Of a stretch of 64,000 bases of DNA, positions 10,228 to 60,529 are shown piece after piece. The stretch comes from Phoronis australis. Taxonomy: Eukaryota; Animalia; Phoronida. A program made the position numbers and the translations under genes. Numbering within the stretch: position 1 is the stretch's first letter; each line of letters begins with the position of its first letter. The stretch is from NCBI GenBank assembly GCA_002633005.1, contig NMRA01000378.1, forward strand, positions 70,759-134,758, in the 5' to 3' direction. The notes under the pieces are model-generated. The model did no database searches, was not told the DNA's origin, and saw only the letters and a list, made by a program, of their open reading frames with translations.

Positions 10228-11528
10228 TCAACCACATTGATCCGTTGACGCTCTATCTACAGCAGTGCACTCTAGCCCAACGTCAAAAAATGCCAGAGCA
10301 ACGTCTTTTTCAGAATATCGCTGAGATTTTGCCGCGTCCAACACGCCACAGACAGCCTTTGCCATCCCCGTACATCTCTTCCACGACATGACATTAGCCA
10401 GCCAAAACACTACGTATGCTCTCTTAACACCCCACCCCGTTTTAGTAGCCAATTTGTAAAAGGCTCTGTTAAAAATTCCAGAAGTGTAGTGGATATCTAC
10501 GGAATCTGAATAATCCCGGAAGTGGGATTTCGATTTGCCGTCGATTCCTGGCGTGTCGAAATAACGCAATGCATCCAAAACGCCACCTTTCTTTATCGAC
10601 CGAGCGACTTTCCAGTCAACTTTTCCGTTTAAGTAAAATTCCAATGCTTCTCCCGAGATATCTGCGAAAGATTCCGAAATTGCACCAGATTGTAACCGAT
10701 TTTGTAAGCGAGAAGTTTCCAATATAAATGCGTGTGCCATTTCGTGACCAACGACGTTTTCATCAGTCATAGGATGGAAAACTGTGTGGCCGTCCCCCAG
10801 GAAAACAGACTTTGAAGGAGGGTCGTAACGTGCAATGTCAAGCTTGTCGCCAAAATGAACCCTAATGGTCATTGGGGGGCTCAGCACAACTCCTCTTTCA
10901 AACCACGCCTGGAACATTTCAAACATTTTTGTCCCATGGTAATGGGCGTCGTTGATTGGTGACCTACCACCATTTATTGCGTCCGTGCTGCCTGTAGCGC
11001 ACGAATACGTGTGCGGCAAGATGTTGCTCGTCTCCGACGTGAACTTGTTGTGGACGAGGACTACTTTCGAATTCGACATGACGCACTGTAACGCTTGGCC
11101 CTCTGACACGTCTAGGAAACCTTTGTGCTGCCCAAAATAATACTCCCCAATCTTGTCATTGCCCCCTATTCCTATTGCGTTTAATCTCAAACCACTTTCT
11201 CTCCACAGGCTAAGGACAGTACTTGTCTCTGCGTCAACCCAAACGGTATACAAGAAAGTATCAACAATCACCCTACGTTCCCTAATAATCCCACAAATCT
11301 GAATTTCGTAATATTGCCGAACAACCGAGTCATTGCGCACATCTATCGATAACTTGAAGTCAGTCACTTTCCTCACATAAGGTCGCCGTAGACCCATCGT
11401 CAGCAGATTTACCACAGCATGTTTAGCGGCTTTTTTGGCCTTGTGACGCGGTGGTAATTCAGATTTTGGCCTGAGATGCTGGATGCCTACGAACAAGGTA
11501 CCGTACACGTTGTCTGTTAAAATTTGTC
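10228..11528 (-). CDS. M4 peptidase exon 5 (end of FTP, PepSY and the complete mature catalytic domain)
   Basis: Acceptor tttcag|GA at 11529-11530. Motifs present: PepSY-like VWVDAETSTVL, GIGGNDKIGEYYFG (LasB mature start GPGGNQKIGKYTYG), SPINDAHY, HEMAH (10732-10746), GAISESFAD, LRYF, DIHYTSGIFNRAFY and GWGVKRAY. Stop TGA at 10228-10230. Confidence 0.95.
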
Positions 11529-14500
11529 CTGAAACATAAATGTTCATATGACTCAAAATAATTTCGCAAAATCCTTTGTTTCTATGTACCAAACTAAAAA
11601 AGTATCGTAAGTGTAGATGTAAAGCTCGAAAAGTAGAATTCAGATTCTAAAAGATAGCTTTAATACTGTGGTCAAAAAAGCACACTAGATTTTAGAAAGT
11701 CATCCACTGATCCACACCAACCATAACACACAGAACAAAATTTTGTATTGAATTAGAACACAAATGACAAAAACTATTCGATAGAGTACACAGATTAGAC
11801 TTCAGGCTTTACATACGATTTGCTACTGTGCGAATAAATCTACACTGAAATGGTGCCCTATAGTCGCTGCAGTAACAGTTCTGCACATTTCAAAATAATA
11901 TTATTACTTTGAAACTGTATGGCTCAATAAACAGGTCTATACTACAATAGAGGTGTATATGTATTTCTCATCAATCAGGACCTTACTGGAACTGTGAAAC
12001 TATGTAAGTCAACAAATAGGACTGAATTTTTGAAGTGAAACAAACGGGGTTTTACTTGGACAATACAACCGTACTGTAGGACTCAGCAAACAGAACATTA
12101 GTTGGACAGTGCTTGGGAAGCTGTTTGTTACAAACAGGACTTTACTTGGAGAGTGAAACCGAATGTCTCAACAAACATCTCGCAAGAAATTAAATGTAAC
12201 TTGTTAAATGCATTTATCGTCATTATTTTGACATTTGTCTCTTTAGTTTGATACTAACCCTTAGGGTTTATTTTGCATTACTCATCTCTATTTATAGCCT
12301 CAAGGGCCTACTTTTGTATTCATACAAGTCTCTACGCGACACCTGATTGGTCGCCCATATTTCCTTTGTTCAGTTCAGCCTGGTCTCTCTCATTCAGCCA
12401 CCTACCTTGTCGTCTACAAGACCTACGTTCGTTCTCTGCGTTTTTCCCCCACCCCCCATACCGGGTGTCGGTTCCACTTTCTCTTTTCTCCTAAACATTT
12501 CCTGTTAGGTTTTTTCAATTTTTGTGTTCATGTTCTGTACTTTTCCTTTACGCCCTTCAGGCAGTTCTTTTGTTTTGGTTCCCTCTTTCAGGGCTATTCA
12601 TTGTACACGCCGGTGGGTGTTTTGTCCATGCCCATCTTGCAGAGTCTTAGTTAGTTTTATCTATTTACGTCATAATAAATGACATTATTCNTGACTCACA
12701 ATAGAAGCCTGATAAGAGTGAAGGTGGATAAATGCGGTGTTCCTACAGTTTCTTGTTTTAGTGGATGTGTTCACGACATGTCCATGCCCATCTTGCAGAG
12801 TCTTAGTTAGTTTTATCTATTTACGTCATAATAAATAACATTATTCGCAATCCTCCTCTGGTTTTACTCTGCAACATAGCTCGTGGCTTACCCCGGGCAA
12901 AATAGATTACGATAAATAAGACTTTACTAATTGGGCAGTAAAACTGCATGTGCCAACAAACGTTTCTTTAGAAACGAGACCTTACTTGGACAGTGAAACT
13001 GTATCTCGTAATCTTCACACCTCTTCCTTTTTTTCTGGTCCTTATTCAAGCAAACAATGCCATCGACCGGGCTACATTTTATGGCCAGTAGATTTGGAGG
13101 AATCCCGGTGTCAGCGGTGAATTCGCAACATTTTTTCCCCTTAACACGACACACAGCGTAATCTGGCGTACCTCCATTACAAACGTTGATGCCACTTCGC
13201 TGAAATGATGCAATTGTTGCATACATGAAGAAACTATAGCATTGTTATTTTGCTGGTTCTAACTTGAGGCAAATGAAGTAAAATGTGACTGCTAGTTACA
13301 GCTAAATGAGTGCATATTATAGGGAAGAACTTGTAGCCCCCAGACACAATATATAGTCATTAAATAAAATCGCCACGTTTCAAGATTTCAATTGATTAAA
13401 TAAAGGCGAACTTCATTTCTATTTGTTAATACATGTAAGTCAATTCAGAAAATAATCGAGATCACCGGAACTTTAGCACAGAGAATACTTTTGAAGGATG
13501 ATTCTCTTGACTGCCTAAAAGGCTCGCACAAGACAGTGGATTGTACACCATTGATAGTTCTAAGAGAAACTATCTTTGTTTAGGCAATAGTCAGTCAAGA
13601 GTAGAAATGATTCCATGACAGAAATGCACTGTCCAACCACGGTTGTCGTTACGACGCCAAAGCCGGCAAAGTCCGTCAAACGAAATTGACGTAAGTAGGT
13701 AGACTGTAACATACAGTGGGTACCTCGAGAGTAACCACTGAGCTTGTTTTAACCCTCTTGAAGAAAAGTTTGTATTGGTCAGAATAAGAATAGATTTCAA
13801 CGGAAACGTGTAAACAGGAAATATAACAAGAAACTTTGGAAACTGTAGGCCTCTTCTTGCATGGGGTGAATCGTCCGAGTACCGTGATAACAATTATCTA
13901 ATTTCCTCAACGGGCCAACTCTCTCTGAATGATATAAAAATATACTATTTGTGGAAATAAATCGGAGACATCTTACTTGCATATCTGGTATTCTTTCAAA
14001 GTCTCCAAATCCATCTGGTGTATCTATACTCGTGAAGTTGGTCCAGTAGCCTACGTGGGAAGAAAATCAGGTTATAATCCATAGTCAGTCCCGAGTAAAA
14101 TACCTGCGTCACAACCTCGTTACGAGAGCTGAAAATGCGACCAAGGTTGTCAAAATAAAGTTCACTTATTATGACAGAACAAAAACACAATAAATGTTTG
14201 TGAAACTAAGATAAAATCAGTAAAATATAATAATGTCTGGTAAGATCAGCAATAAAAAACCCACACAGAGTTACAAGGTTGTGACAAAAGTGACGTGAGG
14301 TAGTGGGCAATCGAGTAACACTGAAATGTTTAGACACGTGCGTCTGTGTAGCTGACACAAGACAATAGAACTGAAACATGTAAAAGCAAACAAAAGACAT
14401 GTTACAGAATTGAGGAAAAAGGGGGTACAAGGGAAAGGAACTCATATGTTCATATCAATCTATTGAAAAAGGGAAATAATATATGTTGCACTTGCGCTGT

Positions 14501-15596
14501 ACATTAATGCACGTACAGGAAATTCTCTGTCGTTCCAAATGGTTTGATGGTCGCTTACGGAAACGGAAATACATCTTCCAATACACTGATCAGGGAAAAT
14601 ACTTACAAATTATTTTCATTTTAATATCTTATTTCTGTACATACAACAACATTCACCAATTGGTCACCGTAATTTTATGTACCGTTGTCATAACAATTGT
14701 GACGTTTCACAATTTCCCAACGTGTACATGTACCTTTTCGCATTGACACGAATATTGAAGCGTCCTCCACTCTCGTGTCTAGGTAGTATTGGTGAGCTCG
14801 GCACCACGTCTGATTATTCAGGACTATGTCCTCGCTAAGCTTCACTGTGTTGTTCAGTCCAAGGTCGAAGTAGTCGTTAGGATCGGGCGACACAACATTC
14901 TTCTTTATGAGTGACGCCGCACTGCGACTGCGGGCGGGGATATGGTATTTCAAGGCCCTCGCAGGCAACCCACCTGCAACATGACCACTAATTTAAATAG
15001 AGTGTGTTTTCATTCGACCGTATGCACTGCAGGGACAACTTTTGCTTGTTCAAAAAGCAAAAATGCGCACGTAAAACTGCCAAGCGATGTAACATCACTC
15101 CGCGTGTTCAGCTTAATTGCATAACAGGGAGCCAATACATAAATGAAATCAAACAGGTGCTTACTGTTTATTGTTTCTTTATTTTTTGTGTCGAGTACTT
15201 GTAAACGTTCAAATTGGGATTGAGATTTACTCATGCTCTAACATTCCTGTTTAGTAAACGCTCTTTTGCGGCAAACCCACCAACGCATCATCAGCACAGC
15301 TGAGAACGTTAGGGGTTCAGTGATACAATACATACCAATGAACTAAGTTGCTTTGTTACCCCCACTTCTATGCTCTTTATCAAACCTCCATTCACACCAG
15401 TGAGTGAATACAAGAACCAGTAAACTGAACACACGAGTTCACTGAACTGTTTCTACTTCGGAAAGGTAGCCGTCGATGCTCCACGGCAAGCTCTAGCTGG
15501 TGCAACGGCGTCTCATTGTGCACAGTATTTCTTCTTTGCAAATATCTTCGCCTACTTACACGTTAACAAAATGTATACGCAGACTGCACGCGCCAT
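10228..15596 (-). CDS. Secreted M4-family (thermolysin/pseudolysin/vibriolysin-like) zinc metallopeptidase preproprotein with an inserted Mucin2_WxxW domain; join(15560-15596,14734-14973,13977-14050,12986-13199,10228-11528), 1866 nt, 621 aa
   Basis: All four introns have GT..AG ends, and the phases (1,1,0,1) join into one open frame. Domain order: signal peptide, FTP, WxxW, rest of FTP plus PepSY, M4 catalytic and M4_C. Confidence 0.85.
12986..13199 (-). CDS. M4 peptidase exon 4 (Mucin2_WxxW C-terminal half)
   Basis: Acceptor tttcag|CGA in phase 0, matching exon 3; donor CCA A|GTAAGG in phase 1. CSPVDGIVCLNKDQ...CEDYEIQFHCP is the G-x-x-C-x-N-x-D-Q...C-x-D-Y-E-[IV]-x-F-x-C motif. Confidence 0.85.
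13977..14050 (-). CDS. M4 peptidase exon 3 (Mucin2_WxxW N-terminal half: GYWTNFTSIDTPDGFGDFERIPDMQ)
   Basis: Acceptor cacgtag|GC, donor CAA|GTAAGA. Matches the W-T-x-[WF]-x-x-x-D-x-P-x-G-x-G-D-x-E signature. The ORF track missed this exon. Confidence 0.8.
14734..14973 (-). CDS. M4 peptidase exon 2 (propeptide, FTP-like N-terminal part)
   Basis: Acceptor ttgcag|GT, donor AAAG|GTACAT, 240 nt, phase 1-1. WCRAHQYYLDTRVEDASIFV resembles the FTP R-x-x-Q-x-Y-x-G-x-x-V pattern. Confidence 0.8.
15560..15596 (-). CDS. M4 peptidase exon 1 (start and signal peptide MARAVCVYILLT-C)
   Basis: ATG GCG CGT GCA GTC TGC GTA TAC ATT TTG TTA ACG T|GTAAGT, a perfect donor in phase 1. Joined to exon 2 it gives MARAVCVYILLTCGLPARA-LKY, a hydrophobic core with an A-X-A cleavage motif. 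Confidence 0.7.
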
Positions 15597-16728
15597 CGAT
15601 CGCCGATTCGAAACAAAATACTGGCCCAGACTATTGCTTATGTATGTTCCTCCACCCCGGTAACTGCACACATCAATTTTAATTCCCTGTCATACAGCAA
15701 TGTACATTTGCGACAGACGTGTAATAACACGTGCTTAAAATAGGTGAAGAGCGGAAGACAGTCGTCCGATGTGAGTTATCCTTGTAGATCTTGTCGGTCG
15801 CCAGTGTATCAACTCAAAAGTGGCCCTTTTACTGAAACTACGTTGGTCAATTATTTCTCCCAATAAACGTTTTTTCAATGGCAATTGAACACACGCGGTG
15901 TTTCATGAAGAAAATTTATTGTCCCGACGCATGCTTATCTTGAACATTGATGCTGCGGTGCGTTGTTTAGTTATCTAATTGCAATACAAAAAAGTAACCA
16001 GATGTCAGCTGAAATGGGTTGGAACTCCTTTTTCAGCGTAGTCTGGTGCCAACCACAATCCCTTGAATTTATCTGTACCTCGATCACTACAAACGAGCAC
16101 TCGTTGTAATAAAACATAAAGAATGGACACTAAAATCAGTACGCTAAGAATGTTCTACTGAAATATGCATGGAGCTCTACGGAATAAGTTTCGAACAAAA
16201 TCTTTGAATACTTCTTTCATTTGATCACATTAAATTTCCTTGGAGTGGAGACTTGACGAAGAATCCCCAAAACAACATCACACCTTTAAGCCGGCTAAGT
16301 AACGACAAGACAGACGCACTTTGCACAGACCTGGATTTGTTTTCACGGACGCTCTTGAAGCAATACCGAACATTTATTTTCGAGCGCAACGGATAGTTTT
16401 TTGAGCTCAGTGTCAAATTAAAGGTAATTATACTCTGATTTTGTATTAGGTGTTGTTTATAACCAAAGTATCAAGGGTTGCTGGTTTCTAACGTGCGTGA
16501 TTTCATGGGTGATAAACGTGTGGTCAATCTGAAATCTCCGCCAAACGCCGAGTGTATGTTGTACTTCAAAAAAGAGTAGCACACAAGAAGAAAATAATCA
16601 TTGGTACATGTAGGTCTACCACCGGAATATCACCAGGGCCTAGTGTCGTGGCACCGGCTAAGGACAGATCTCAGTAGTGATGTCGAAAAAGGAAAGATTA
16701 GAGAGATTCTAAGTTTGGCAGATGTAAA

Positions 16729-17802: not shown

Positions 17803-20800
17803 GCCTCTGTCTCCGCATCTGCTGGATTACAGCACTAGTCTAGCGGTAGTCCAAGGAAAGATGTTTTTAAGGACATTTTTATTATTTTTCATCTATTTTG
17901 ACCCATAGTGGACATCGTTCTGTTTCGTAGCACAGGTGCATTTTTGTTATTCATATACCCGTAGGCTAGCGTTCAACTGAACTCTCACCAAAACTGCTGG
18001 GAGGGCACTTGATTACTGAACTCAAAGCCTAGTTCGAGTTGTTGTCACGAAAAAATAAACAGCTAATGAATTACTTTTTGATGAGAACCTCTAGTATACA
18101 CTTCGTCTGCAGAGTTAAGGAGGCCTCATTTTGTAGTTGTTCAAACACGATACTTAGATTTATGAATCTTTAAAAACAACATTTTTGTTTTTTTTGTAAA
18201 TGTGATGGCCACTTTTTGCTAATATACCAGACTTGTTACCATACCACAGCTTAGTAATCATCCTACGTTTAAGATTAAATGCAAACTACCTTTATGCAAT
18301 GAAACCACAAAAAATATGAAGTTCATCAGAAGATTTGCCTTGATGGTGCACTGAATAACGGCCATTATTCCATGCGTTAACTTTGACTTTTGGAAACAGC
18401 CTTGGACCTACTTGAAGCTAACTGCTTGCCTAGGATAAGATGGGTTTTTGCCTGAGGTACGAACCTGATTTTTTAATCAAAATAATTTGCTCGAAGATTA
18501 GGAAACTATAAACAGTGCTATCGACTTGACATAATTTACTTGGAGAATACAATCAGTTGTGGTCTACTTTTCATTTGGCGGTATTTAGCACCAGGCAGAA
18601 TAAAAATATCTGCGAATCTTCACTGATTTTGTTCGAAATATCCTGAAATCTATGGCATCGTACAGAAAATTTGACTTGAAGGTAAATATTCAGCTTTACA
18701 TGAACGTATCGGATCAGTGGCCTTGTCAGTTTTCAAGTGAAGATGAACCCGGTGTGGGGTTCTTTGGGTTTTCGCCTGGCTCCGAAATACTTTTCCTCGA
18801 ACACTTATTTTTTCATCGTCGCAGCTTTAAAAATTCCCAATGCATGAACGTACGATTCTAAGCTGAAAAGTACCGCCTGTTTTCTACGTCGAAGCCCTTT
18901 CGGAAAGTGCAAAAACGCTCATCAATTCCACCAGGAACGTCGTTTAGCAACTGTGTATTTGCCTCTTACATCTTGTTTGTTTGTCGGTTATCACGTGACT
19001 TTTCGCAAGGACGCAGCGCTTGCGATAGGTCAATTTCTTTGACTTGGCTGCTATGACAAACCACGCGGAAGTGACGTGAGCACTGGAAAAATCCACAGAT
19101 TTCATCAAACTTTGTATCTTTTGCTCACTCAACTCTGGCTACATTTGTATAACGATATGTGCATTATTTAGAGGGGGTGGTTTGCTCATAAAACTGGAGG
19201 AAGAATTTTTGGTGTTTTTCTTGATGTAGAAATTTCAAATTTAACTTTTACAAAAAATAGGACTTCTAACAAAAAAATTAAAAGTTCTTCGTCCCGATTC
19301 TAAAAAATCGACCATATTTTCGTATATAAATAACCTTCACACCCTTGGTAAGGACTGTCCTATGTGAGCATAGACAGGTGTGCCGTCCATTCTGCGTGTT
19401 GTGAATTGACCTATCGCCAGGATTATGACGGACGGCTTAATTGACCAGTCAGAACGCAGCATTCTTGGCACACCTTCGTCTGCGTTGAAGCTGCTATTTT
19501 ACCCGAGAAACCACACGTAGTCGAGTAAAACTCACTTTAGTCTATAGCTCAAGAAATTGTCCGCTAAGAATGGGGAAAAGGTGTTGATATGGCGTGTGTA
19601 TCACCGACAGCCGTTATGCTGCTCCACTGAGAAGAATATCCCGTCATTTTTTGGCATGTTCTAAGCCGAAAGATGATGTTGAAAAGCGTTAAAATGGATC
19701 AAACTGTACGGCCACACGAGCAGCTGAACTTAGCGATGTTGCTTGATAACTCGAAGGCTATAGTAAACACAAATATATTAGTTCCAAGATACAGTGTACG
19801 TACTTTTCAGCTTGGTGGCTATGGTGCAGGGCTATCTCAGATTCTGACTCCCGAGTTTCCTACGTCTGACCGCCTTTTTCTCGGCACCTGCTCGGGATCT
19901 CAACACTCTAGCGGTAGTCCCCGGAATTTGTTGTTTTCAAGAACATTTTTGGTTTATTTTTTATTTATTTCAACCTAATGGACATTATTTTGTTTCGTAT
20001 CAGAGGTACATTTTTGTTATTCATAAACCGTAGGCTGGCGTTCAACTGAACTTCTCTCCCTGTCAAAATTCAGAGATTCGATCGGCACAGGGAAGGGCAC
20101 TGGATTACTGTCGGAACTCAAAGCCTTCTTGGTCGAGCTGTTGTCACAAAAAATAAACTGTTGAACTACTTTTTGACGTGTACCTCTAGTATACACTATG
20201 TCTGTAGGGTTAGAGAGGTTTCATTTTGAAGTTGTTCAAACATGATATTTAGATTTATGAAGCTTTAAAAAAGAATTTGAGTTATTTTTGTAAATACATG
20301 TACCCTATTTTTGCAACTAACACACCAGATTCGTAATCTTTTGTAACCATACCACGACTTAGTGATCATGCTACCTTCAAAATGAAATGAAAGCTACCTG
20401 TATGGAACTGAACTACAAAAAAATGCCAAGTTCATAAGAAGTTAGGCTTAATTTAAATGTCTTATTGGTGCAAACGGACAATTCCATAGGCGGATTTAGG
20501 GGGGCAGGGGCCCCAGCCCCCCCTTGACTGCCGCAAGGAAAATGAAACAGCAAGAGCGTGAGGAAATATTGAGTTCAGTAACTAGGACCGGTAAAGGAAG
20601 AGGGGGGCTCAGACGCCAGATCGCGGCGGAATCGTGTTCCTGTTTTTTTAGTCCACCGATAGATTTTCTGAACAGAAGTTCCAACGGTATACATCCCTGG
20701 CCCCTGCAACTTTCGGGCCGCCTGTACACTATACAATTGCACTTTGCCCAATTCCACGAGGCAACATATGTTGGCCCCCCTGTGGTATCCTAGATCCGCC

Positions 20801-21416
20801 ACTGAATTCCAGACATTAATTCGACTTAGACACTGCCCTAGACCTACCGGAGCTAACTGTTAGTGGCCAGGACGAGATGAGTGTGTACCTGAGCTATAAA
20901 CCTGAATTTTTTATCAAAATATTTCTTTACAAGATTAGAAAAGCGTAAACAGTGCTATCGAGTCGACCTTTTCAGAGACTATAGTGCATGTGTTGTTTGT
21001 AATCTATGACTTACTTTACTCCAGGAGTCCCACCAGTTGTAACCTACTTTTCATTTGGCGAAATTTAGCAGACGACAGAATAAAAATATCGGTGAATCTT
21101 CACTGATTTTATTCGACAGATCATGAAATCTATGGTTACGTACAGATAATTCGACTTTAAGGTACATACCCAGCTTTACATGAACATATCGTATCAGTGG
21201 CCTTGTCATTTGTCACGTGAATGTGGCCCCGAGGCCGGGGGGTTCTTCGGATTTTCGCTGGCTCCTCAAGCACTTATTTTTTCATCGTCACCTTAACAAA
21301 TTCCCATATCATGAGCGTGCGATTCACTGTTGAAAAGCATCCCCTCTTGTCTCTGTCGACACGTTTTCAAATAGTACAAAAACACTCATCGATTCCACCA
21401 GGAACGTCGTTTAGCG
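17803..21416 (+). repeat. Local direct duplication: 17803-18947 vs 19872-21416 (the second copy carries the 20485-20804 MITE)
   Basis: Shared CTAGCGGTAGTCC start, CCTCTAGTATACACT, AACAGTGCTATCGA, and end ATTCCACCAGGAACGTCGTTTAGC. Confidence 0.85.
20485..20804. mobile_element. G-rich-end MITE with 5-bp TSD AATTC
   Basis: CATAGGCGGATTTAGGGGG...CCTAGATCCGCCACTG; absent from the paralogous block near 18365. Confidence 0.8.
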
Positions 21417-21970
21417 CCAGCATAGACTATAGATAGAGACTGACAACTCCCGTTAGAGCGCGTTGCGCATGTCGCAGGCCACGGGACATAAGCACTAACG
21501 ATTAGAGGGCGCTGCACACGCAGGATAGAAAACTATCCTGGTTCCCGGGCCTCACAAGCTGACGTCACGGATTGCTTGTGAAGGCCCAGGTACAGCGCAC
21601 TAGAACGATGGTTTTCATTGGCTGTCAGCTGGCAATTTTTAAACCAGGAAGTTTTCTCTGCGCATGCTGACATCCGGTATTACGTTATCAGGTCGCTAGG
21701 TGTCGCGAGAGTAAAAGTTATTTTGAGACTGGGTCGAGTTTGCGGTCGGGGGGAACTCTCTGGTGAGGTAGCTGTTTATATATTGTGATATTACCAACAA
21801 ACTGTAGTAAAATCATGTAATTATCGATTCCTTACTAGGAAAATAAACATGAATTAACAATGGCTTCACTCTTTTCACTTGGCATTTTTTCAGTTTCATT
21901 GTTTGAATGCTTTTTATGAATTGAAAACGTCCCGAAATCCTGTATCCTCCCCTGCTGTAAGATCTTACAG

Positions 21971-22129
21971 CAGGGGATGGTCCAGGATTTTGAGTTAGGG
22001 GGCAGGGGCAAGGGCAGAGTATTTTGCCCGTCAGACATTTGCACCCCCAAACTGCTAAATGGAATCTGGGAGAATTTTAGGCAGGGCCATGACCCCCTTG
22101 CCGCCCCCACTTCCCCCTATCCGTCTCTG
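21971..22129. mobile_element. Short G-rich-end MITE with 5-bp TSD TACAG
   Basis: TACAG|CAGGGGATGG...TATCCGTCTCTG|TACAG. Confidence 0.65.
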
Positions 22130-25100
22130 TACAGTGTTAAAGTAAATACTGCTGGCACCCAATTTCCACCACTTCGCAGCCTACACAGTATTCGCCCCCT
22201 AGAACACCACAATTTTCGACCCTGCAGGTAGCCACAATTCTCAAGCTACACCCCCCACCTTGTTGAAATACTAATTTGTTCTTCCCCATTTCCCTTTTTG
22301 AGGTGGTACCCCGCACAACTTGAGGGTCCTAAGCCATTCAGATCACTTTGGGTATATTCGGGGCCTCAATTTTCTCATTGGAGGTGAATTTAACCTGCGT
22401 GATTATCAAACTTAGTGGAAAATGATTGGCCATAAAGTTCGAGCATGCACTGAAAACATTAACTTCCAAGGGCATCCAGAACACCTTGGGTGTTTTCGTA
22501 ACCTCAAATTTCACCTAATAGGTGAATGCTCTCTGCATGTGTGCGGACTTCAGTTTGCCTATTATTGTCACGATTGCAAATCACATGACTTGCCATATTT
22601 TGGATAACGTTCATCTCCGAGAGGATATTTGAGGGTACGAAAATACCTGAAGTGTTTCTAAGAAAAATTTGTACATGCAAATAGGAAAATAGCTGAGGTG
22701 CTCCGGATGTTCTGAGGGTAAATTTGTAGCTAGAAAATACCGAGAGGTGTTCCAAATGGGCCCTAACCTTCAATTTTGTGCATAATCGAGTACTAGAAGA
22801 ATCTCCACCCATTTAGACAGTGGTTAAAAAAAACATTCTGTTTGTGGTCCGAGGTTTGGACTTCAATAAAATTGCAGCCTAGTGTTTCAAATGCACAATC
22901 TTTTTATAACAGCTAATGCTAACAAATGAATCCTTTCGTAGTAATTCTTGTACAGCTGTTGTTTTCACCCATTAAGCTTGAAGAAGTCGGCTCAGAGATT
23001 CCTGTTGTCAAAAATGAGTCTGGTGTCCAAGGTTTTAAAAATACAGGTATCGTATTAAAACCCCTATTGCAGCAGTAAAAAGGTACCACTGGCAGTGTTT
23101 TTAACTTCCAGAGAGAAACCTGTTGTATTCATGGGAAAAAGTTTGCTGTGGTAGGGTTTTTTTCAAGCACCATTTTGAAGAGAAATTGTTTGAGAAGAAT
23201 CACCCAGTTGAGGGTTGTGTCTTGTATAAACCTGTGGGAGTACCCCCTTGGAATGGTTTTAGGAGGGTACTCTGAAAGCCCAAGGATGGTGGAATGAACC
23301 CTATCCCTATACCTAACAATGTGAGTTGAACATCTTGGAAAGTACAAGCACAATTGTTGATTTCAGAATGCGCTTATCAGATGGTGTCTTCTAGCTTCCA
23401 GATTTCCTTCGAATTAAATCCCTTAAAGTTGCTTCTTATGTGAAAAAGAATAAATTTTGATCTGAACAAATTACCACTATATGCAGGAATTGGAATGACT
23501 ATAAGAGGAAAATTTTCCAGGTGATCTATCATTTCACAAATAGGCTTGTGTGATAGAAATATTTTTGTGTTGTAAAATTAAACTGAAATAAATGTTTTTG
23601 CATGAATCAAGCCAAAAATGATGACAAAAAGAAGCTGGAAATCAAATAAAAGGAAATAAAAACAAAAAAAAAGAAAATTCCAAGCCCTGTATATATCCGT
23701 CTCAACTTGTTCCTTAGTGGACTTGGAAGAATTCAAACTTTGTTATTGCTCAAAGCCATGGTTATTGCACCAGGTCTTAAGCAATAAGAAACTATCCGTT
23801 CAACCGAAGCCAATATACCACATGTAATCTCAGTAAGGAACAGTACAAGATCAAGAGTCTAATCACGAGCACACACATGAAGATTGACATCAGACACTAT
23901 TATCCAAATCCAATGCCAATCGTCATGTGAGTGCTTGTGATTTTTGCTAATTTGGCCAAAAACAACATTGTTTGTACCAGACCAATCTTATATTGTTACA
24001 TGACAGTTCTAAAAAGAGTTTGGATAAATAGCAGCTTGAAAAATGGTACAATTTGTGGATAAGGAATGTCAAAAGGGTTCATTTTTTTCAACACAGTTTA
24101 GTACAGATGTTTTATTATTCTCCACATAGCATTTAAATGCTTTTTGGGTTAAACAGATTCTAGCCCAGTCTTGTATAGATTGATTTAAAACCCTGAGAAG
24201 GGATTATGCGATCATGTTTTGGGAATACACCTCTAGAGTGAAACTTTCAATCCAAATCGAACTCGAAATTGTTTTTGACACTTCTAGTCCACTTCCTTGC
24301 GAGATCAAGATAGTGCTTAATGACCACTAGATTCGAGCTAAAATGTGAGTAAAAACTCAAGATTTCTAGTAAAACCTCGAACTCAGACTCAAACTTTTAG
24401 CTGTAATGCAGGGATCATTAATTGCCATCAATAAGTACTCAAGCATAGAATAAAAGAAACTTATCTCAAATTCAAACAAAACTAGAATAGAAAATAACAA
24501 AAATAATTCTGAGTAAAAAGTTGAAACCCAGGGTCCAGGTGTTAATTTTATAATGGTTTATGCTTTCACAAGGCAGTGAATGTGCAACTTGAATGGCAGT
24601 CGGGTCTTTAGTAACCTATTCCCATGTAGCAACACTGGTGTAGTCAGAATTATTCAAGAGGTTGCTAAACTTGAAATTGTTGGCAACCAATGACTGTATT
24701 GTGAGGCAACTTGGAGGCACTGCATGAACAGGGGACAGGGACAAGGAAGCTTGGCAAGAACAAAACTGAAATGAGTTTCTATCAGGGGAAGGGTTTGCAA
24801 TGAGGAGGGGATTGCCCTGTTGTGCGCCCACGGCTATGTTAATGCCCAGACTTAGTACTTCAGTCTATCGCTAAACTAAACCATAATTAGTAATTAATAC
24901 ATCAGCAAAATAAAGTTTCCGATGGTTAGATAAATTTCTTGGCATGTTGTGTGTTTCGTAGCTTATGAGTATACTATTTCTGGGAACACATTAATGATGT
25001 CAACGTGAGGGTGTTTGCCAGTGCGAATGTTCTGAAACATTTCACACTGCCCAACTCTTGCCACGAGGAGGCCCCCTCAGTATAATTTTGAAAAACTGTT

Positions 25101-38529: not shown

Positions 38530-41500
38530 GGGGCTATTCGGAAAATCTGCAACAACTAGAGGGCGTGCGTGTACTAGTGGTGATAGATTAACAGCCTCGA
38601 TTTCGCGAGCCCTTTAAATACATGGTGAAATGGCTTGCAGCCGTGCCAATTGAATCTGAGATTGCGTAAAAAGGGTGCTTCTATGAGGGAAGTAAGCACG
38701 ACCTCATACAAAGGTAAGGTTTGTGATCATTTTAACGATTATTCCATGATTATTCTACCGATGCCTGTTCACTGAGGCACTCGCCGATGTCGACTTCGCG
38801 GCAGTCAGTCGCCAGCCAGAGTCTGGTTAATCTTTGTATGTTGCGATATGTGATACGATACTGGACGTAGCAATCGGGATCTTTTCGTACATCAAAGCAT
38901 TATTATTGCTTGGAATGATTTCTATAAGTTTATCAGTGGCAGTTACATCAATCAATGCTGCATATTTATGCTGTCAACTCGATACAGGTTAAATTTGAGT
39001 TAAGGTTACAATCCAATCCCAATGGCAAAGGGTACGTGAGTGATAAATATCCATTGCATTAGACTATTTGTTTACTCCCTATCATATGTCTTCTGGAAAT
39101 CTATTACACGTTGAAATGGAAATCTATCACGTCAGTTTTCACGTAACCTTTGGCTTTTTAGGTTTGAAGGCTTGTACCGTGCAGAGGAGATATGCATCGC
39201 TTCTGCACCGTCCCTGAATGGACAAATATTGGTTTTTAGCATTTGACTGCAGCTAACCAACAAGATCTTCCCATCCAGTGCAGATCTGTTGTCAAAGCCT
39301 ACTTTCAATATTGGAGACAACGAACAAAGCCTTTGAAAAGGAACAGCTATTTTTAAAGTCACTTTGTTAAATTACTTATTCAGGTCCCGAGGGTGGATTG
39401 GCAAGTGGTGGGTTGTAATATTTGGTACAACTGAATGTGTGGAAATAACAGGTAATACATGTTTGGGGAAAAGAGCATGGTGAGGTAATTCTTAACCTTC
39501 ACGAAGTCCCTCCTAGTTGATTTCATGAAACTGTTTTGGTACTTGTATCAATTGTAAAACCACAAGAATATATTACATTTTCCGAATTTACAGTGACTGA
39601 ATAGTCTTAACTCATGCCTTGAAATGTTGCAAGTCGTTATACATGTACATTCAAATGACTGCCGTTTTTGTGAAAATTGCATTTTTGATGGTGCCTTACG
39701 ATTTGTAATAACTCTTAAACAACAGAAAGATTATCCATCATTTTTAAATGACCCAAGTCTTCATATCTTCTATTAGAAAGAAAACGGTTCCCTCAACCTT
39801 AGGCTAGAAGTATGCTTGACAGACCCATGAACCTGTAATCTGAGTTAAAAATTGCTGAAAGTATCAAAATTAAAAAGGCTTGAAAGGTTTGAAGTTGTCT
39901 CAAAAAACTTGTATATTTTACAGACAAGTGATGCGTTTAAATAATTGTTATGGCTAGGGATAAAAAATAAAGACAGTTTTATGCAATACTCATTATATAC
40001 ACCCTTGGTTTCTGAAAATAGTAACTATTTACTTGTATGTGAAACTGTAGACCAATCACCATGTATTTTTGAAAAACAGGGATAATATTTTTGATCCAAT
40101 CTGGAGTACTTAATTATTCATATTTCAATATTTGTTCCAGGTTCAGTGACATTTTAAGGCCACTTCAAGCTGTATCATAGACAAGCTTTGTTACTCTGTT
40201 CTCTTCCCACAGCACTTCCACACACCAGCAGTGCTGCATGGCACAATGTGCAAGTCAGTGGCCCTGGAGAAATGTGAATCGCAGTACTAAGTTACCNNNN
40301 NNNNNNNNNNNNNNNNNNNNNNNNNNNNNNNNNNNNNNNNNNNNNNNNNNNNNNNNNNNNNNNNNNNNNNNNNNNNNNNNNNNNNNNNNNNNNNNNNNNN
40401 NNNNNNNNNNNNNNNNNNNNNNNNNNNNNNNNNNNNNNNNNNNNNNNNNNNNNNNNNNNNNNNNNNNNNNNNNNNNNNNNNNNNNNNNNNNNNNNNNNNN
40501 NNNNNNNNNNNNNNNNNNNNNNNNNNNNNNNNNNNNNNNNNNNNNNNNNNNNNNNNNNNNNNNNNNNNNNNNNNNNNNNNNNNNNNNNNNNNNNNNNNNN
40601 NNNNNNNNNNNNNNNNNNNNNNNNNNNNNNNNNNNNNNNNNNNNNNNNNNNNNNNNNNNNNNNNNNNNNNNNNNNNNNNNNNNNNNNNNNNNNNNNNNNN
40701 NNNNNNNNNNNNNNNNNNNNNNNNNNNNNNNNNNNNNNNNNNNNNNNNNNNNNNNNNNNNNNNNNNNNNNNNNNNNNNNNNNNNNNNNNNNNNNNNNNNN
40801 NNNNNNNNNNNNNNNNNNNNNNNNNNNNNNNNNNNNNNNNNNNNNNTTTTTTCCAATGCAATGTTACGACATTTACTGAATTAAGGCTTATTCATGTTAA
40901 TTGATAACTGAGCTGGTGGTCCTGGGGGTGGGGTCCACGATAAAATAAGGAAACTCACTCATCTAGAGAATTTTATTGGAAACAGCATAGTTTTGAAGAG
41001 AAACTGCTGTGATAAAGTCACTCTTGACTTCTGTGCATCACGTACCATACACCTCTTATTTTGGGAGCACCCCACCCAGGACAACATGAATATGTGCTGC
41101 TAGCCTACCCGGCATCGGGTGAGTTTCCGAAAAGAAACACTTAGTTCCACTCAATAAAACTTTTATTCAGTGGGGTAACTGGTGGGGATAACATCACCGA
41201 ACGATGTTGATAGAAACAAATTGCTAAAAACTTACCAAGTAATGTTGTGTAGTCTCCGAATGGAACTGCATAGTCATAGAGCACACACGGGGCTTCAGCA
41301 TCCACACACTTTTTGTCAGTTAGTTGACCCCGTTGACCGCAATTGTCCACGAATATAGTAACCTTAGGTCTTTTTGGGAATTTGTGGCCACCTGTCGAAG
41401 ACTTGCACCAGGGAAATTAGCAGTAATAAAGCTTAGCGCGACGACGTATTTTGATAAAAATTCCATCTTTTAGCAGTAATGTTGTTTACATGCAGACGGC

Positions 41501-44500: not shown

Positions 44501-47500
44501 AGCCGTTCCCTATTTAGAATTCCTTCCCCTTTGTAGTTGTTACCCTTAGGATTAGTCGCCATGACAGGTAAAGCGATATAATGTCTGATTACTTTTGTCT
44601 GATACTGTACTGGATTTTCATAAAATTTGACACACAGAATACTTATGGCGATTACACTTTTTCTTTTTCCTATGAAGTCTAAGTAATATGCCCCCCTAGT
44701 AGTGTTCCATCTGCAACACCGCTGAAAGGATCATTTCAAAACTTTACAGGTATGTTGTTGTTTGCATGAAGAAGATTGATGTTGATTGTTAACTGGTCTA
44801 TCTTCTGTGGTGCCTGCCATATAGCAATTTACATGTAGCTTTCTTAATGTATCCTTCTATATCGACCAAGCTCCATGATGCATTTTCATGATGCATGTAC
44901 ATGACAAATAGTTTTCTGTTAACGGAGACACCGACAAACTCCTATTTTCGAATGGATTCAACATGTTCTACACCCACTACAGACTGAGGTCCTTTTCATT
45001 ATTTTTGTCACCTGCCTCTCTGTCATCCAAAGCCATGAGTTCCTATTGAGATGATCAAGGCTCTTTAGCTTCCCGAGTGGCTTCTTTTGCCTGTGCCGTA
45101 ATATATACCAACTTCTTTAATGGACATTTGTAAGATTTGGTGTATATGTAGCCTACATGTATGCGTTCCAACTCACAGTGAGGAGAGTATGCTCAGAATT
45201 AATTTCTGGACGTGTCAGATTACTGTGGCATCCTTTGGTGGCAATTTAGGATTTTCATATGGTTATACATCTACCAAATTTCTTCATGCATGAAATTTGG
45301 CAAACAGATGTCAAGGAAACCGAACGGCAGCGATTGCCTTGTTTAAGATGGATGAGATGTATGCTGCGCCCCCTAGTGTTATTTATATCTTATAATTAAC
45401 GATACTTAAACGAACACCACAAGCTAGAAACACTGTTAGTGGTGCAGTCATAGGTGCATTTTATACGATGCTTGTACACGATGCCAAGAAACTTATGTGA
45501 TGAGATGGTTTCATTATATTTCTTTTGATCACCATTTCGCACACTTGTTGCCCCGAGATTCCACTCTTGTCAATTAATTTAAAGGTGGACCAGTGGTGAA
45601 CTAATTTGTCTTGTTCATATCTTGAGTTCAGGCAAAGGCTGCTGGTTACATTTCTATGGAATAAAAACTGAGGAGATGTCTTCGAGTGTATTGCAACTCA
45701 GTTTCCATAAATATATACTCAGTGTAATGATACATGTAAGACACGTAACTTCACCACGCTACTCTTCCGGAAACCTCACTCAAAATAATCGAGCTTCTTG
45801 TAGGCAGTGTGGATTCCAAATTTTGTAAAAGGTCAATAGCAGTAACAGTGGTGCTCAATTGTGGACAATTTTGGACTCAGATTCTTTTACAACAAAGCAG
45901 CTACAATTATTTTTTGGAAACCCGGCCAATGGGGCGTCTTGCACAGGCTAACAAGCCCGCAAGAAAGAAAATATTTTGGGGAAACTAGAACCAATTNACA
46001 GATGTCAAGGAAACCGAACTCAGTGTAATGATACATGTAAGACACGTAACTTCACCACGCTACTCTTCCGGAAACCTCACTCAAAATAATCGAGCTTCTT
46101 GTAGGCAGTGTGGATTCCAAATTTTGTAAAAGGTCAATAGCAGTAACAGTGGTGCTCAATTGTGGACAATTTTGGACTCAGATTCTTTTACAACAAAGCA
46201 GCTACAATTATTTTTTGGAAACCCGGCCAATGGGGCGTCTTGCACAGGCTAACAAGCCCGCAAGAAAGAAAATATTTTGGGGAAACTAGAACCAATTCGA
46301 ATTTAATCCCACGCGCTTGCCAATGCACTCCCTGTCGCAAACAGAGAATTGACCAACACAAATGAGGTTACGCCAAGAATACTTGGCTCCCGACCCCTCT
46401 GTTTCCTTAGACTCTGAATATATTCGGAAAATACAAATCTCAAATGTGGATTTCCACGATTGTTTTAAGAAAAATGAGGCAGTCGCTAATACGAAGTTGC
46501 GCGACGGAACAGCACCAGAGACAAAATAACGTGTGAAAGATGACACGAACACTGAATCGGAAACTTGAATAGAATAATGTGACCCACAAGCCCCCCCCCC
46601 ACACTCACCAATAGATTACAGACCTTGTGAAGAAATTAACTTGTATGCACGTCTCTTAAACCAATCCCCGCAATACACCATGTTCTCCACACTCTGCTAC
46701 CATTCAAGTGTTCTGAGAATTGGTAAAGGATTTTCGTATCCCAAATGGCATTCGCAAATTTTTAAGTCAATTTCGTTTATTCACCCCACACAAAAATGTA
46801 AAAATAAAAAATCAAAGGCAAAGTAGATACAAAAACTTTAATGTCAAAAATCCTAAATGCAACCAAAACGCCGAAACGCAGCGCGGTTGTCGCTCAGACG
46901 AGTGAGCTGTTAACATCATTGTCCAAAATGGAGTAGCTCTCGTGCAGTGCACATGTATATGAAAACCTCACGGCCGCAACTAGCCTACCTACACGTTCGC
47001 CGACCCATTAGTTCTACACCAGTGCAGCGCCCTGTAATGGTCGTCTGTTCTGCACCGGCAATGCACTCGAGCAGACTAATAAAACCGCAAAACATTGTGA
47101 TGGATGAAACGCAAGATTCTACACATTTGGCCACTCAGATTACCCTTGATGTATGTCTGCAGGACCACTATTTGGTTTCGGTTAGCGTCATGTGTCATAA
47201 TTCAAGGATCCCGTTAAGATGACACCCTAAGACACGAATCTGTTCTCTTCAGTTAAATCACTTGCAGAACACCGTTCCATGGACAAAATTGTTTTGTGAA
47301 CTGTCTATAAATTAACTGAACAAGCCACCCCCCCTTGAACAGGTAATTGGGCACTTTTTCTTTCCGTACACTTGTGAATGTCAGTTTGTGTGTTTAAAAC
47401 CGCTCACTCAGTTGCAAACAAGTTTAACAGTCCCATTAGCCAAAACTGACCAGTGGGTAGCAGTGCTTGGTCAAGGATAGCTGCCAAATAAATAGCAAGA

Positions 47501-50570: not shown

Positions 50571-60529
<9,959 letters not shown>

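Follow-up and report, generated by a model that had tools for sequence, protein, structure and literature searches.

Metalloproteases of the M4 family have been described as almost exclusively bacterial (PMC7851659), and their propeptide acts both as a chaperone and as an inhibitor of the enzyme (PMC10017501, PMC5078317). CysD modules, also named Mucin2_WxxW, have been described as bilaterian (PMC4948705). A CysD module of MUC2 contains ten cysteines and forms non-covalent dimers, for which a hydrophobic loop bounded by cysteines has been proposed as the contact surface, and CysD repeats are also present in Oikosin 1 (Ambort et al., PMC3195396). Structurally, CysD is a small beta-sandwich that holds two calcium ions, and within filaments of MUC2 it is CysD1 that acts as a clasp on VWD1 and C8-2; the disulfide map of the module was revised in the same study (Javitt et al., PMC7599080). 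Here, we describe a gene in which these two elements meet. It lies in a stretch of 64,000 nucleotides from the phoronid Phoronis australis (contig NMRA01000378.1 of assembly GCA_002633005.1, positions 70,759 to 134,758), hereafter the window, and it encodes a vibriolysin/LasB-like M4 protease whose propeptide is interrupted by a CysD-like module. The chimeric architecture is real and, apparently, undescribed so far.

Gene structure and splicing

The gene occupies positions 15596-10228 of the minus strand (window coordinates are used throughout) and comprises five exons, which encode a signal-like N-terminus, an M4 propeptide and the catalytic domain. The coding lengths of exons 1 to 5 are 37 (coding sequence only), 240, 74, 214 and 1301 nt, and the introns of 586, 683, 777 and 1457 nt, all four of which are bounded by GT..AG, lie in phases 1, 1, 0 and 1. 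The signal peptide of exons 1 and 2 was judged by eye.

Exon 1, 15560..15728, minus strand: 5' untranslated region to at least 15728; coding sequence 15596-15560 with the first 12 residues, hydrophobic and signal-like; phase-1 donor.
Exon 2, 14734..14973, minus strand: end of the signal-like region and N-terminal half of the FTP-like propeptide up to the hairpin turn; phase-1 donor.
Exon 3, 13977..14050, minus strand: first 24 residues of the CysD-like module, including WxxF and a run of acidic residues (D/E); phase 1 to 0.
Exon 4, 12986..13199, minus strand: Mucin2_WxxW/CysD-like core with eight cysteines; phase 0 to 1.
Exon 5, first part, 11184..11528, minus strand: remaining FTP sheet and PepSY-like propeptide half, up to the inferred processing site R303|L304.
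Exon 5, second part, 10228..11183, minus strand: vibriolysin/LasB-like M4 catalytic domain, HExxH at 10746, no C-terminal PPC domain.

Exons 3 and 4 form a cassette of 96 residues with phases 1-0-1. The full model encodes 621 residues and the version lacking the cassette 525, neither of them with internal stops. The two introns that border the cassette share phase 1 and the propeptide reads continuously once the cassette is removed, as in a symmetric module. This gene model, with its four GT..AG introns, upholds the coordinates, exon sizes, protein lengths and 1-1 phase given in the initial annotation, which was made from the sequence alone. At the cassette-free join (14737-14734 to 11528) the letters read AAG|G, which we take to be the proto-splice consensus; this would fit an older phase-1 intron at the site, but such letters are also common at exon ends.

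Transcription was followed in three raw RNA runs chosen by species label (X1, X2 and X3; tissues coded), of each of which about 18-19% was read, and in assembled contigs from a different study (X4). The joint between exons 2 and 3 is crossed by 51 reads (38+6+7 in X1, X2 and X3), that between exons 3 and 4 by 25 (19+4+2, with two letters replaced at the joint) and that between exons 4 and 5 by 34 (23+3+8), with a read depth that differs about fivefold between X1 and X2/X3. The joint between exons 1 and 2 is represented by 13 X1 reads, the exact join not being placed owing to the strong divergence at the beginning of exon 2. Moreover, one X4 contig of 724 nt spans exon 1 through exon 5, covering 15558-15728 of exon 1. 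The two WxxW exons, which had been predicted to be joined to the protease, are thus spliced both to each other and to the protease exons on either side. First mates map to the plus strand over exons 2-5, which is the orientation that a stranded library should give for a transcript of the minus strand, except where a repeat in intron 4 intrudes, and apart from this repeat the introns are almost free of reads.

The intron 4 repeat (12187-12916) carries reads on both strands, their depth reaching about 540 in a 200-base bin. Its reads rejoin end to start (12913->12187; 62+25+41 reads and one contig), which suggests that the repeat exists in tandem arrays elsewhere or as a circle. It also contains a direct duplication of 68 bp that surrounds an N at 12691.

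The CysD-like module

Pfam was run on the exons one by one. Exon 4 matches PF13330 (Mucin2_WxxW) with an E value of 2e-7 and a score of 32 bits (cutoff 22.4), over profile positions 23-88 of 88; exon 3 alone has no Pfam match and nothing meaningful in the PDB. Exon 4 also has a weak PDB match to MUC5AC chain 8ov0 (E 0.023), and its first Atlas match is a eukaryotic PF13330 cluster (score 0.93, with a low recognition of 1850).

The module shares with the CysD domains of MUC2, MUC5AC, MUC5B and Oikosin 1 a PF13330 score above cutoff, a length of about 96 residues, a Trp-led N-terminal motif, here followed by an acidic stretch, and the hydrophobic loop bounded by cysteines, which is retained in exon 4 as Cys-x7-Cys with its spacing kept. 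Unlike a canonical mucin CysD, it has WxxF instead of WxxW and eight cysteines (at residues 124-187) instead of ten, and it stands as a single copy in an enzyme propeptide, with no PTS or VWD domains; it is therefore filed as a CysD-like variant. The earlier description of a complete Mucin2_WxxW domain holds as far as the PF13330 match of exon 4 is concerned, but has to be amended with regard to the motif and the number of cysteines. None of the features by which gel-forming mucins are defined in PMC4948705, namely VWD-C8-TIL units and PTS regions, is found in the 621-residue model.

The propeptide and the insertion site

A custom hidden Markov model (HMM) was built from 271 of 285 homologue propeptides. 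The cassette-free propeptide is recognised by this HMM as one domain (24.0 bits, columns 69-216), and the full propeptide with the cassette splits into two matches, to columns 69-121 and 126-216. Control sequences in which a shuffled exon 2 preceded the real exon 5 scored at most 9.3 bits (200 controls). Exon 2 alone reaches 9.0 bits, with 200 shuffles at or below 2.6, and the propeptide part of exon 5 covers columns 125-216. Exon 2 has no match in Pfam, FTP included, or in NCBIfam, Pfam PepSY likewise has no match to the propeptide, and a profile-profile comparison (hhalign) of exon 2 with the homologue alignment, here called A1, returned a probability of 0.2; it is thus the custom HMM on which the propeptide nature of exon 2 rests. 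The proposal that removal of the cassette restores an FTP-like propeptide is supported with respect to continuity, but Pfam FTP misses exon 2.

With regard to the position of the insert, its fit in the propeptide may be inferred from a homologue (P0103), for which an AlphaFold2 (AF2) model built with a 60-row alignment has a mean predicted local distance difference test (pLDDT) score of 89. In this model, a strand (92-98) is followed by a turn (99-100) and a second strand (101-112), and the insertion point aligns to the two-residue turn of this beta-hairpin, so that the module is predicted to project from the hairpin tip. The expectation that the insert sits in a surface loop of the FTP domain is accordingly met by a predicted surface turn, as judged from the homologue model and the alignment. 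In the AF2 model of exon 5, the propeptide part has a Foldseek match to the MCP-02 propeptide (chain 3nqz_A, E 0.036, probability 1.00). The boundary between the propeptide and the mature enzyme of LasB aligns at R303|L304.

The catalytic domain and its altered cleft

Exon 5 matches Peptidase_M4 (PF01447, 53.4 bits against a cutoff of 22.4) and its C-terminal companion M4_C, and it is closest to the LasB/vibriolysin group (E 2e-67 to pro-elastase LasB in the PDB). The AF2 model of this exon (mean pLDDT 89.2) superposes on vibriolysin 3nqx with a template modelling (TM) score of 0.97, a root mean square deviation of 1.3 A and an E value of 1.3e-31, and shows the predicted two-lobe fold of thermolysin. 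The HExxH zinc motif is present as H450-E451-H454, and E474, D478, R510, D533 and H535 align with LasB E164, D168, R198, D221 and H223, E474 being the third zinc ligand. Both HExxH and E164 are kept in all 284 homologues of the cleft census (one of 285 was too short and was dropped) as well as in the window protein, which in LasB numbering also keeps E141, H223, R198, D168, D221, F129, V137 and L197. The S1' pocket is mostly conserved (F129, V137 and L197), with L132 replaced by Met. In comparison with LasB and MCP-02 (1ezm, 8cr3 and 3nqx), the protein shares the order signal-FTP-PepSY-M4, the catalytic fold, the zinc ligands, H223, R198 and the GGN motif at the mature N-terminus, at 36-38% identity in structural alignment. 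It differs from them in the four introns of its gene, in the 96-residue animal module within the FTP sheet and in its cleft, and it lacks the PPC domain of many marine gammaproteobacterial relatives.

The cleft is not that of a canonical LasB or vibriolysin. LasB N112, W115, Y155 and N163 are all replaced, by I420, Y423, N465 and S473, the last of which is a Ser in place of the Asn that precedes the third-ligand Glu; the RNA form also has Asn at 465, through a synonymous change. Additionally, the position of Y/F114 is occupied by Arg. The four residues are retained in 270, 277, 278 and 275 of the 284 homologues, respectively; 257 homologues have none of them changed, 21 have one, three have two, three have three and none has all four. 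According to mutagenesis of thermolysin, both N112 and the Tyr are important for catalysis. The S1 site of pseudolysin has been described as comprising N112, Y114, W115 and the Tyr (PMC4407726). With such a cleft, the analogy to the mucinase activity of LasB and HapA drawn in the initial annotation is weaker than assumed.

Homologues and phylogeny

A search of 1.84 billion representatives gave 4702 matches, of which the best 150 were listed; among these, the best identity is 44-45% over the matched stretches and the top matches are bacterial. The cassette has no match in the 285 fetched M4 homologues, Lingula included (best E 1.6), and PF13330 is present in none of 120 listed homologues, a weak test of absence among animals since the databases are mostly prokaryotic and only the best matches were listed. 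A weak search for exon 4 among longer proteins gave five candidates, none of which scored, and pattern scans of metagenomes gave 550 matches for exon 5 and 89 for exon 4, none of them confirmed; these searches yielded no close relative. Within the 64-kb window, tblastn detected no second M4 or WxxW copy.

Animal M4 proteins have already been deposited for Lingula anatina (XP_013384835.1 and XP_013378819.1). They share with the window gene an animal host and the combination of FTP, PepSY (weak) and M4 domains, but no CysD insert breaks their FTP hairpin, and N112 and Y155 are canonical. The hairpin is also continuous in several eukaryote-looking matches; 14-17 matches were labelled in this way, by eye only. 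One of the Lingula proteins (P0111, XP_013384835.1) has a Thr/Gly-rich, mucin-like insert of about 65 residues near the start of the mature domain (A1 columns 301-370), which would be an animal-style insertion acquired independently by an M4 protease.

In trees computed with FastTree and IQ-TREE, in which the mixture-model tree was a quick search only, the window protein sits on a long branch that pairs with a further long one, that of P0060, and it has no supported sister, Lingula included. Its history may reflect one old animal origin or a separate transfer. Besides Lingula, two separate and well-supported M4 clades look eukaryotic by eye, one with P0023, P0170, P0171, P0069 and P0103 and the other with P0135, P0124, P0204, P0211, P0173 and P0183.

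In the literature, no report of an animal M4 transfer or of a protein combining M4 and WxxW appeared among the openly readable papers listed, some of the searches being broad and subscription papers lying outside their scope. The main text of the hemichordate genome paper contains neither 'thermolysin' nor 'WxxW', and the accessible Lingula supplement contains neither 'thermolysin' nor 'Peptidase_M4'. Together with the 0 of 285 homologues that carry the cassette, this agrees with the earlier remark that the architecture was not recognisable from described proteins. The novelty is limited, since phase 1-1 modules are a textbook case of exon shuffling and animal M4 genes had been deposited.

Proposed function and alternative explanations

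From the observed gene structure, splicing, cassette inclusion, domain identities and residue changes, we infer every functional step of the following reading, to which a probability of roughly 45% is given. The gene would encode a secreted M4 zymogen that its CysD-like module keeps docked on mucin, in a dormant state, until cleavage of the propeptide. A bacterial-type gene would have gained introns, and the two-exon phase 1-1 module would have been inserted into a phase-1 intron that lies at the hairpin turn, without disruption of the propeptide fold. The propeptide would still fold and inhibit the enzyme, and the CysD-like module is proposed to bind mucin domains or other CysD domains, by virtue of which the zymogen could be co-packaged with mucus and held in it, in granules or in the gel. 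A cut at R303|L304, where the putative P1' residue is hydrophobic and the S1' pocket largely conserved, would then free the catalytic domain without its anchor. The loss of the N112, W115, Y155 and N163 equivalents has probably made the protease slower or narrower, suited to limited processing and not to bulk mucin digestion. Of the interpretation offered initially, the chimeric zymogen with a phase 1-1 animal module in its M4 propeptide, spliced in RNA, is retained, and the skipping switch is given up. In a wider form, possible but on balance doubtful, a horizontally acquired protease was domesticated by the CysD graft: the latent enzyme would be parked in the animal's own mucus, its cleft retuned from a bulk degrader to a mucus-processing or antibacterial enzyme, and its address label removed on activation.

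Several points weigh against mucus docking of a self-activating zymogen. Self-activation may fail, given that no homologue combines all four cleft changes, and neither the second Trp nor one of the Cys pairs is present in the module. The partner need not be a mucin, because CysD/WxxW modules also occur outside the gel-forming mucins, in Oikosin 1 and in CILP. The propeptide is not unusually basic, since 44 of 268 homologues are equally so; electrostatic tethering by a basic propeptide was ruled out on this count. The case for a bacterial ancestry is built on similarity and on the distribution of the family; the trees do not place the protein. Finally, many differences from the window are fixed in the reads and the X4 contigs differ from it at 52/549, 19/211 and 12/198 letters (about 6-10%), and reads that are 90-94% like the window imply that the RNA comes from a diverged allele, a population or a close paralogue and not demonstrably from this copy. 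The data show that the architecture persists across this divergence. Of several hundred differences, the 28 listed coding ones hit 25 codons, 14 synonymously and 11 not, which is a weak sign of purifying selection.

The cleft is also the starting point of the alternative that survives best, itself unlikely, according to which the protein is a pseudo-protease or a near-dead one: the uncut precursor would be a structural or binding part of a secreted matrix, cross-linked by the CysD-like module, with a zinc cleft that binds peptides and does not cut them. The replacement of four residues that are near-invariant in the 284 homologues, no more than three of which are changed in any of these, would be explained in this way, as would the loss of the named S1 residues of pseudolysin and the long branch in the trees. 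Nevertheless, HExxH, the third ligand, H223, R198 and both Asp residues are intact, the fold is predicted to be whole, the residue at the inferred P1' is hydrophobic and, among the read differences listed, those in the core are mostly synonymous, all of which speak against this reading.

Next in plausibility, and again unlikely, is an insert that is real but does not dock to mucus, being a passenger, an aid to folding or dimerisation, or a binder of another matrix (shell, cuticle or cartilage-like tissue) that is discarded with the propeptide. Hairpin turns tolerate inserts and the motif is degenerate (WxxF, eight cysteines). Mucin2_WxxW is also listed in a supplementary domain-count table and a protein table for Lingula, as far as these tables were accessible, which suggests that the module is no rarity among the secreted proteins of invertebrates. 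This reading is harder to reconcile with two exons that stay in frame and are included in RNA differing by about 9% in exon 4, and with a Cys-bounded loop and acidic motif that are both kept.

The initial annotation had further suggested that skipping of the cassette might switch between a tethered 621-residue and a free 525-residue isoform. The symmetry of the cassette would allow this, as skipping preserves the frame, but the reads make it very improbable. The skip joint 14734->11528 is absent among the joints listed (15 of 17, the weakest with 3 reads, and 15 of 50 in another read alignment), to be set against the 51 and 34 reads at the flanking inclusion joints in about one fifth of the three runs. 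Corrected for exon length, the X1 depth is about 44 for exon 2, 49 for exon 3, 37 for exon 4 and 40-54 for exon 5. With no skip joint listed and cassette depth equal to flank depth, the cassette is present in nearly all sampled transcripts.

An artefact (bacterial contamination, a chimeric assembly or intronic WxxW exons of another transcript), which might be suspected from the bacterial best matches and from an index look-up that listed no DNA run containing the stretch, is hardly tenable and already largely refuted by the junction reads, given the four canonical introns removed in stranded RNA, the contig of a second study that links all exons, an intron-split calmodulin gene on the same window and a best identity of only 44-45% to any protein among the matches listed.

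The surrounding window

The calmodulin gene (50941-53551, minus strand) is canonical and is represented by two EF-hand exons, 53551-53402 and 51201-50941; it is the single Pfam match among 150 other open reading frames scanned (of 204 of at least 62 residues). It is presumably of the invertebrate type, as judged from a Phe in its third EF-hand, and its intron holds a 451-bp two-copy tandem repeat (51503-52476). Upstream of the protease gene, the region 19000-24000 is repeat-rich and has many divergent RNA reads on both strands, with no Pfam match in the open reading frames scanned there. At 45717-46297, a perfect repeat of 301 bp in two copies surrounds an N at 45997 and is probably an assembly overlap, and 40297-40846 is a 550-base gap.

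Implications

The gene shows how a bacterial-type enzyme can be rebuilt in an animal, by the gain of introns and then by the placement of a module inside, not beside, a bacterial-type domain. Should the two eukaryotic-looking clades prove to be animal, M4 proteases could have reached animals on more than one occasion. The altered cleft offers a natural experiment on the residues that are required for M4 catalysis. If the module does dock the zymogen on mucus, the protein would be a natural case of propeptide-based targeting, would provide a test of CysD binding outside mucins and would mark a tolerated insertion site in M4 propeptides. It would then be a zymogen whose address label goes on activation.

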